From the NCBI RefSeq assembly GCF_044324785.1, contig NZ_CP172127.1: a stretch of DNA of 64,000 bases; one strand, 5' to 3'. Under the pieces are notes generated by a model. The model had not been told where the DNA came from. It worked only from the letters and a program-made list of their open reading frames with translations, and searched no databases. The position numbers and the translations under genes are program-made. Positions 28,114 to 28,877 of the stretch are shown here, in pieces (the first letter of the stretch is position 1; the number at the start of each line of letters is the position of its first letter). This DNA comes from Escherichia coli (GTDB taxonomy: Bacteria > Pseudomonadota > Gammaproteobacteria > Enterobacterales > Enterobacteriaceae).

Positions 28114-28485
28114 TCAGGGCAAGATTACGAAAGCCCGCTCCCCGCAAGGACTGACGCGAGAAATGACATAAATCGCTCCCCTGCGGCGACTCTTGTCATA
28201 AGAGTGCCGGAGCGTTTTTCCATCAATTACAATGACGTCTTTATCATCTGAAGAATGGCAGTCACGCATCCAGTTAATAAAGCACTCGTAAAATTTTTCA
28301 GGACTGATACAGGATACAACTCTGGCAATGGTATCGTGAACAGGAATACCATTTTCAAAATCACCATATTGCTTCAAAAAATCGAGATGAGTTTCCCCAA
28401 AATCCTCTATATCTTCCCAACCTTCTGCACCAGAAATAACGGCACAAATAGTCAACAGTAGAATATCTGACAATTTATGCTCCAC
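28114..28485 (-). pseudogene. Truncated H-repeat-associated (ISAs1-family) transposase, N-terminal ~110 aa only
   Basis: [48 protein letters not shown]... is the conserved N-terminus of E. coli H-rpt proteins (YhhI/YdcC type, ~378 aa); reading frame diverges and stops after ~123 aa. Confidence 0.7.
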
Positions 28486-28877
28486 TTTCTAGGCTTGTCT
28501 GTAATCGGGGATAATAGAAATATGTTCCATCAATTTTTTAAGTTCCATTTTGTTCTCCTTAATTATGTAAGGAGTATTTGATCATGTATAAGCAATGGAA
28601 AACAGCTTTAGGTAATAAGGAATATCTCAATTATTGAATATTTAGTGCGAATTATTTAGTACAAAAAAGCAGCGTTGCGTGATCTTTCCCTGCCCTTTAT
28701 TCATAAACTCATGGATATGGTGATCAACGGTGGTCTGATGCAGGCGCAGAGCCTGAGTAATCATGACTGAATTTCAGCCTTCAGAAGCCAGAAGAATGGC
28801 TTTAATACAATCGCAGCCCCGCTTTTCACAACATTATGCTTATAATATGAAAAATATCTTGCCTTGCATCTTTGTGC

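Follow-up and report, generated by a model that had tools for sequence, protein, structure and literature searches.

What lies between the distal end of an Rhs element and its chromosomal neighbour yhhJ, and does any of it retain a function? We addressed this in a 64,000-nucleotide stretch of Escherichia coli DNA (assembly GCF_044324785.1, contig NZ_CP172127.1; hereafter the window), in which the Rhs element occupies the position of RhsB in K-12, between nikR (35577-35978, minus strand) and yhhJ (plus strand, ending at 27960). Read from nikR to yhhJ, the element comprises an Rhs core protein of 1377 aa (31241-35374), a yibA-type HEAT-repeat immunity gene (30378-31235), an orphan Rhs C-terminal fragment (29371-30336) and, last, a Sel1-type immunity gene on the minus strand (28878-29357).

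The gap between this last immunity gene and the REP sequence downstream of yhhJ is filled by mobile-element remnants. From the Sel1-type gene toward yhhJ we found the tip of an H-rpt element, the 5' piece of a group II intron, a piece of an IS630-family transposase gene, a second H-rpt with an internal deletion and the end of an IS1397 copy; the gutted H-rpt is the largest of them. We are highly confident that the interval is non-functional debris made of these five remnants, stacked end to end and all in minus orientation. The identity, boundaries and population frequency of each piece were read from the comparisons described below, and from their structure we infer that the whole interval would be without function.

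The 1.5 kb around the stack is 99.7% identical to E. coli strain N3, and 254 of 5426 complete E. coli genomes cover this 1.5-kb arrangement in full. For two strains that share it, N3 and 746, the RefSeq annotation pipeline (PGAP) calls an ISAs1-family transposase pseudogene (window 28150-28548, minus strand) and an IS630-family transposase pseudogene (window 28684-28812, minus strand). A first-pass annotation of the window had placed a decayed H-rpt (ISAs1-family) element at the yhhJ-proximal edge of the Rhs element. That observation was confirmed in part and its interpretation supported in part: the H-rpt is there and does document past rearrangement, but the inventory missed a stop at codon 20 of the transposase, the intron fragment, the second H-rpt tip and the IS1397 remnant.

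An H-rpt element with both ends and an internal deletion

The largest remnant is an ISEc1-like H-rpt of the ISAs1 family (28115-28692, minus strand) that retains both ends and has lost 713 bp internally. Aligned by BLASTN with the rhsB-yhhJ region of K-12 (L003), the window gave two collinear blocks: 28698-28162 matched positions 7229-7765 of that region at 94% identity, and 28161-27700 matched positions 8479-8940 at 97% identity. The deletion junction between them (28161-28162, minus strand) removes yhhI codons 130-367, which is the whole catalytic DDE region, and introduces a +2 frameshift. We looked for microhomology at the junction and found none. The remaining element is 578 bp long; 578 and 713 bp add up to 1291 bp, the length of a whole H-rpt, which agrees with the empirical ends.

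Those ends were defined by comparing copies. More than 12 H-rpt copies with unrelated upstream flanks turn alike exactly at [C/T]AGGGAAAGA, which sets the left end, and eight copies diverge immediately outside ...CTTGCCCTG, which sets the right end. The left terminal inverted repeat (28669-28692, minus strand) reads CAGGGAAAGATCACGCAACGCTGC and the right one (28115-28138, plus strand, read inward) reads CAGGGCAAGATTACGAAAGCCCGC; the two match each other at 18 of 24 positions and at 13 of the first 15.

In the ISfinder classification, elements of the ISAs1 family have terminal inverted repeats of about 14-22 bp that begin with CAGGG. They are about 1.2-1.5 kb long, carry a single ORF whose product is a transposase of about 378 aa, in which DDE_Tnp_1_assoc is the N-terminal domain and the catalytic DDE domain is C-terminal, and are flanked by an 8-10 bp direct target-site duplication. 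The terminal repeats of the window element conform, the left one starting CAGGGAAAGATCAC... and the right one CAGGGCAAGATTAC.... At 578 bp the element falls short of the family length, and of the transposase it keeps the N-terminal domain only. Since codons 130-367 are deleted, it is a defective derivative and not a functional member of the family, and it is unable to transpose on its own. Its remaining roles are passive, as a 578-bp stretch homologous to the genome's other H-rpt copies.

The first-pass annotation had explained the broken frame differently: the downstream end of the H-rpt would have been lost toward yhhJ, and a separate plus-strand gene would have been reduced to its C-terminus (...LPFIHKLMDMVINGGLMQAQSLSNHD*). 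A plus-strand ORF does exist, and the frame does break after about 108 residues of a GTG-started ORF. However, the final 47 bp of the H-rpt, right inverted repeat included, are present as in K-12 and join the yhhJ flank at the same point, which makes the deletion an internal one and the yhhJ-side junction ancestral. The K-12 alignment and the strand comparison of the IS630 fragment given below already refute that version, which we regard as almost certainly wrong.

The closest described counterpart is H-rptB of K-12 (yhhI; ISEc1, ISAs1 family), the H-repeat of the RhsB element. It lies at the same position beside yhhJ, shares with the window copy the right junction with an IS1397 remnant and inverted repeats starting with CAGGG, and is 94-97% identical in DNA over the parts that the window retains. 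The window copy differs from it in the missing 713 internal bp and in carrying a frameshift and a nonsense codon. The left flanks also differ, being the IS630 fragment in the window and a truncated yibA-like pseudogene, yrhC, in K-12.

No target-site duplication surrounds the H-rpt in the window: its flanks, AATAAAGGG and AATACCGGA, match at 6 of 9 positions. A secondary left junction would account for this, and the absence fits a rearranged left junction and not a simple insertion. The sequences just outside the two ends (28693-28704 and 28103-28114) bear a weak resemblance (GAATAAAGGG versus GAATACCGGA, 6/9), which may be due to chance (p ~0.01) or to a target preference and is too imperfect for a target duplication.

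An H-rpt remnant at the yafV locus of E. coli strain 9 (NZ_CP048304.1; positions 2100-2330 of the extracted region, L004) has an apparently different internal deletion. Its endpoints fall within a pair of 8-bp direct repeats, GGGGAGCG, and lie about 13 and 18 nt from the breakpoints in the window. If this sequence is read correctly, internal deletions of H-rpt would have arisen more than once.

A truncated transposase with a private nonsense codon

Codons 1-129 of the transposase remain (28162-28548, minus strand), encoding the DDE_Tnp_1_assoc N-terminal domain and preceded by the native ribosome-binding site, with the ATG at 28548. These 129 homologous codons are followed by 15 foreign ones up to a TGA at 28114-28116; since the 713 bp lost are not divisible by three, the deletion shifts the frame and the ORF closes there. 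The minus-strand ORF at 28114-28485 (123 aa) is the N-terminal domain of an ISAs1-family transposase, with matches to Pfam DDE_Tnp_1_assoc (PF13808, E=2.3e-28) and to NCBIfam transpos_ISAs1 (NF033564, E=6.8e-38, profile positions 1-102 of 314). With the 94% DNA identity to yhhI, these matches bear out the assignment to a decayed H-rpt/ISAs1 element. The initial estimate that only about 110 N-terminal residues survive was right in that the catalytic part is gone; the count was too low. Re-examining the frame recovered no full-length H-rpt ORF, as had been anticipated.

Translated from the ATG at 28548, the minus strand gives the N-terminus of YhhI and a stop at codon 20. This nonsense codon (TGG>TAG, W20*; 28489-28491, minus strand) is specific to the strain, as both N3 and 746 have TGG. 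It is the sole difference between the window and N3 across 811 bp, and the mutation is therefore private and recent. It also explains why the ORF listed first began at a downstream GTG.

Truncated transposases act as trans inhibitors or regulators in some other IS families. By analogy, the 129 residues with their 15-residue tail might have been kept as a trans-acting inhibitor or regulator of other H-rpt copies. N3 and 746 have an open 144-codon ORF behind its native ATG and ribosome-binding site, 274 genomes of at least two haplotypes carry the deleted form, and both inverted repeats, the would-be binding sites, are kept. We nevertheless think this very improbable: the window copy stops at codon 20, PGAP calls a pseudogene, and the N3-type ORF differs from K-12 by five non-synonymous and four synonymous changes, with no sign of constraint. 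Descent explains the persistence equally well.

The yhhJ side: an IS1397 remnant next to REP

The right end of the H-rpt abuts a 64-nt remnant of the right end of IS1397, an element of the IS3 family (28051-28114, minus strand), which consists of the last transposase codons and the right terminal repeat (...GGTCAGTTCA). Compared with the 3' end of an intact annotated IS1397 (L016, 1801-1886), 82 of 86 nt (95%) are identical. A REP or palindromic-unit sequence downstream of yhhJ follows (GCCGGATAAGGCGTTTA, 28031-28050, no strand assigned; approximate bounds, read directly from the sequence), and REP-type sequence comes after the IS1397 end both here and in the intact copy. IS1397 is an insertion sequence specific for REP/palindromic units (PMC1525189), and the window has its right terminal repeat, ending ...TCA, within such a unit. 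The last 64 nt and right terminal repeat thus adjoin REP as in intact copies, whereas the other ~1.37 kb are gone and the right end of the H-rpt lies at the break.

The same remnant is present, unannotated, in K-12 (NC_000913.3, about 3625522-3625590), between the H-rpt and the yhhJ-side REP. To our knowledge, K-12 is usually described as lacking IS1397. The junction of the IS1397 remnant with the right end of the H-rpt is found in 2112 of the 5426 genomes, K-12 included, and must therefore be old.

An IS630-family fragment in place of a plus-strand gene

Directly beyond the left end of the H-rpt lies a fragment of an IS630-family (ISEc40-like) transposase gene (28693-28821, minus strand), which covers codons 27-69, the helix-turn-helix region, and has an internal TGG>TGA change. 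Its minus-strand peptide, DCIKAILLASEG*NSVMITQALRLHQTTVDHHIHEFMNKGQGK, aligns with residues 27-69 of the ISEc40 transposase at 79% identity (E=5e-23); at the DNA level, an IS630-family pseudogene of E. coli strain 9 shares 93.5% identity with the fragment. The NCBIfam profile transpos_IS630 (NF033545) was matched at positions 3-42 with E=0.0024 and 17.4 bits against a cut-off of 100 bits, a score that is low because the fragment is short (43 codons). The homology stops at ...AATAAAGGG (28693), with the CAGGG of the H-rpt left repeat directly next to it; its other limit is at about 28821. Both limits lie well inside the transposase gene, and we found neither IS630 terminal inverted repeats nor a TA target duplication. 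The helix-turn-helix residues 27-69 are shared with ISEc40 and with a closer, unnamed E. coli IS630-family element (strain 9). Unlike an element of the ISEc40 type, the window has 129 bp left, which lack terminal repeats, TA duplication and DDE domain and are interrupted by a stop.

The plus strand of the same stretch had been taken for the C-terminal remnant of a lost ORF. The translation of 28675-28770 is as quoted at the time, but the reading was on the wrong strand. This ORF is the antisense of the IS630 fragment, and it consists in part of the H-rpt inverted repeat: the stretch in question (28681-28770) has 12 bases of the left repeat at its end. Pfam scans of the plus-strand ORFs at 28675-28770 and 28763-28912 returned no match, and BLASTP of the plus-strand peptide against the ISEc40 transposase returned no alignment, in contrast to the opposite strand. 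We therefore rejected these ORFs as real coding remnants; the real remnant is the minus-strand helix-turn-helix fragment.

A related join occurs in strain FDAARGOS_536 (L014, 3440-3500), where the H-rpt that carries the intron meets the same IS630-family element in its 5' leader, some 15 nt ahead of the ATG. The window H-rpt meets codon 69 of that element instead (compared through positions 2881-2945 of the strain 9 region), and two different junctions thus exist for this pair of elements.

The 5' end of a group II intron in the tip of a second H-rpt

The remaining bases up to the Sel1-type gene carry two further pieces. The outer one is a 15-nt tip of the left end of a second, otherwise lost H-rpt (TAGGGAAAGATCATC; 28889-28903, minus strand). 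An exact 12-mer, AGGGAAAGATCA, occurs twice in the window (28680-28691 and 28891-28902) where 0.16 occurrences were expected, and no shuffled sequence contained at least two; a reported 25-nt direct repeat also supports an H-rpt tip beside the immunity gene. The inner piece (about 28822-28887, minus strand), of which the tip forms the 5' exon, appears to be about 65 nt of a degenerate group II intron 5' end, as suggested by 81% homology to validated copies and by its place right after the H-rpt tip.

The evidence for the intron comes from its relatives. About 2800 genomes have, upstream of H-rptE (ydcC), a segment that matches the 64 nt beyond the second 12-mer at 81-83% identity. The counterpart in E24377A starts directly after an H-rpt tip and runs into Rfam RF01999 (group-II-D1D4-2), matched with 88.6 bits against a gathering score of 36. 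In FDAARGOS_536 the intron is full length: CAGGGAAAGATCAC is followed by TGTGTGCC..., domains D1-D4, ltrA and D5/D6 (RF00029, 62.8 bits), and the D5/D6 match is followed by the remainder of the H-rpt left end with its ATG. This layout indicates that the intron homes about 15 nt inside the left end of H-rpt. The placement agrees with published work, in which the introns E.c.I2 and E.c.I9 target the Rhs IS (ISEc1-5) at two positions and E.c.I9 fragments are listed in E24377A and other strains (Leclercq and Cordaux 2012, PMC3522654). In our searches of the full-text literature we found nothing that joined H-rpt with a group II intron, or ISAs1 with H-repeat.

In all seven intron copies inspected, the window included, the intron comes after nucleotides 1-14/16 of H-rpt. 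Group II introns recognise their homing sites through pairing of exon-binding sites (EBS) in the intron with intron-binding sites (IBS) in the exon. A candidate EBS1 (CGTGAT, at about intron nt 266) pairs with H-rpt nt 10-15; such a 6-mer match is expected about 0.1 times by chance. In a multiple alignment the window follows the intron 5' sequence to GTGAAAAG (28829-28822) and then switches to IS630.

The window fragment thus lies in the same place as the Rhs-IS group II introns (E.c.I2/E.c.I9; full length in FDAARGOS_536), directly after the first ~15 nt of H-rpt, but it preserves only the first ~65 nt, at 81% identity. The GUGYG start has been lost, with GTGTG mutated to CAATG, and the intron/exon boundary is exact to within 1-2 nt only. 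Domains I-VI and the reverse transcriptase, complete in the FDAARGOS_536 copy, are absent from these ~65 nt. Without that start and these domains, the piece counts as the remnant of an intron. When window 27900-29400 was scanned against Rfam at E<=10, matches were at chance level only, the fragment being too short and degenerate. The interval annotated at first (28114-28877) already holds the intron 5' sequence and ends just short of the second H-rpt end. We also considered whether the 65-nt segment could be the left end of another ISAs1 member and rejected this, because the upstream ISAs1 copy in 2017.02.04CC (L009) has a different subterminal sequence.

Other loci show further combinations of these parts. 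At the RhsE locus of E24377A (NC_009801.1; L006, 2469-2496), a 13-nt H-rpt tip is tandemly duplicated (CAGGGAAAGATCA CAGGGAAAGATCATCG) ahead of the intron. Tandem H-rpt/ISAs1 copies are common, as in isolate CB209 (NZ_OZ392441.1; L012, 2023-5032) and 2017.02.04CC (L008/L009). One tandem copy has a related group II intron inside the transposase ORF, after ...HWRLDG, and in another tandem pair the left end of the second H-rpt removes the 3' end of a diverged ISAs1 copy.

The end of the Sel1-type immunity gene

The remnants reach into the coding sequence next to them. The last eight codons and the stop of the Sel1-type ORF (28878-29357) consist of the H-rpt tip and the first intron bases. Distant Sel1 homologues end 2-5 residues past the join and lack the LGKDHPMP tail, which indicates that the first H-rpt landed in the last codons of the immunity gene and that its LGKDHPMP* tail is derived from mobile elements. 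The stop codon of the immunity gene comes from mobile-element sequence.

The Sel1-type protein itself (minus strand) has a lipoprotein-like signal sequence (MKRFLFILIANIFFFSCGS...). This suggests a periplasmic Sel1 protein, and hence that the adjacent orphan Rhs C-terminal toxin (29371-30336) may act in the periplasm.

Population distribution and order of events

The 713-bp deletion together with the IS1397 flank was found in 274 of the 5426 complete genomes. A looser query for the deletion junction matched 410 genomes, which fell to 274 once the yhhJ-side flank was required; the two excess matches listed (H74 and H223) were joined two-piece matches to ybfD copies. With a frequency of about 5% of complete E. 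coli genomes, the internal-deletion derivative is usable as a lineage marker.

These counts bear on the idea that intact H-rpt transposases still mobilize the 578-bp element in trans, as a non-autonomous, MITE-like derivative. Its two terminal inverted repeats are undamaged, and potential helpers abound: intact copies are common, and a genome has a median of about 6 places that match H-rpt. However, the junction with the IS1397 flank accounts for the 274 genomes, no second locus with this deletion was seen among the matches listed, so that there is no evidence of mobility, and the element lacks a target-site duplication. According to literature cited in PMC3032704, moreover, transposition of H-rpt has never been observed. 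We consider such mobilization highly improbable.

A synthetic 180-nt query that joined the left part of IS1397 to the left end of H-rpt was covered in none of the 5426 genomes. With no ancestral left junction and no target-site duplication, the left junction of the H-rpt is secondary.

From this we infer the order of events, for which no intermediate forms were recovered among the 5426 genomes. IS1397 would have inserted into REP and would then have received the H-rpt. Repeated remodelling of the DNA on the left of the H-rpt would have followed, through deletions that stop precisely at its left end or through recombination among H-rpt copies; before this, the left side may have held the Sel1-proximal H-rpt, with an intron retrohomed about 15 nt inside it, and an IS630-family element. 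The 713-bp internal deletion now present in 274 genomes would have come later, and the codon-20 nonsense mutation last, in this strain only.

In strain EC2202095 (NZ_CP196099.1; L007, 4241-4938), an IS1 separates the deleted H-rpt from the IS630/intron remnant, and the annotation has no Sel1 CDS there. The extra IS1 indicates that the pile-up of insertion sequences at this spot is still going on.

Left-end junctions of H-rpt in E. coli genomes

Base-precise joins link the H-rpt left repeat, at its outer end, to varied partners in different E. coli genomes. These include a yibA-like gene (K-12), another ISAs1 copy, met at its end (L008), one IS630-family element at two positions (the window and FDAARGOS_536) and one intron at three truncation points (175, 209 and ~460 nt). 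In one further case (L011), about 45 nt of unrelated sequence lie between a 112-nt intron fragment and the next H-rpt. This nested series of junctions resembles the classic footprint of IS-mediated adjacent deletion. If it arose in that way, H-rpt would have been enzymatically active in nature and would be what trims and reshuffles the distal ends of Rhs/T6SS toxin-immunity arrays, an indirect sign of activity in an element for which no transposition has been observed (PMC3032704). We put this forward tentatively and judge it rather unlikely.

All the components of the stack are of known kinds: two are already RefSeq pseudogenes, and group II intron fragments and their association with the Rhs IS have been published. 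The finding is known biology of low interest, a pseudogene cluster that had been correctly placed but mis-described. Its practical value lies in annotation, as the RefSeq annotation misses the intron and IS1397 remnants. For the H-rpt elements themselves, the base-precise left-end joins are an indirect hint that an element "never seen to move" may have shaped the boundaries of Rhs loci.
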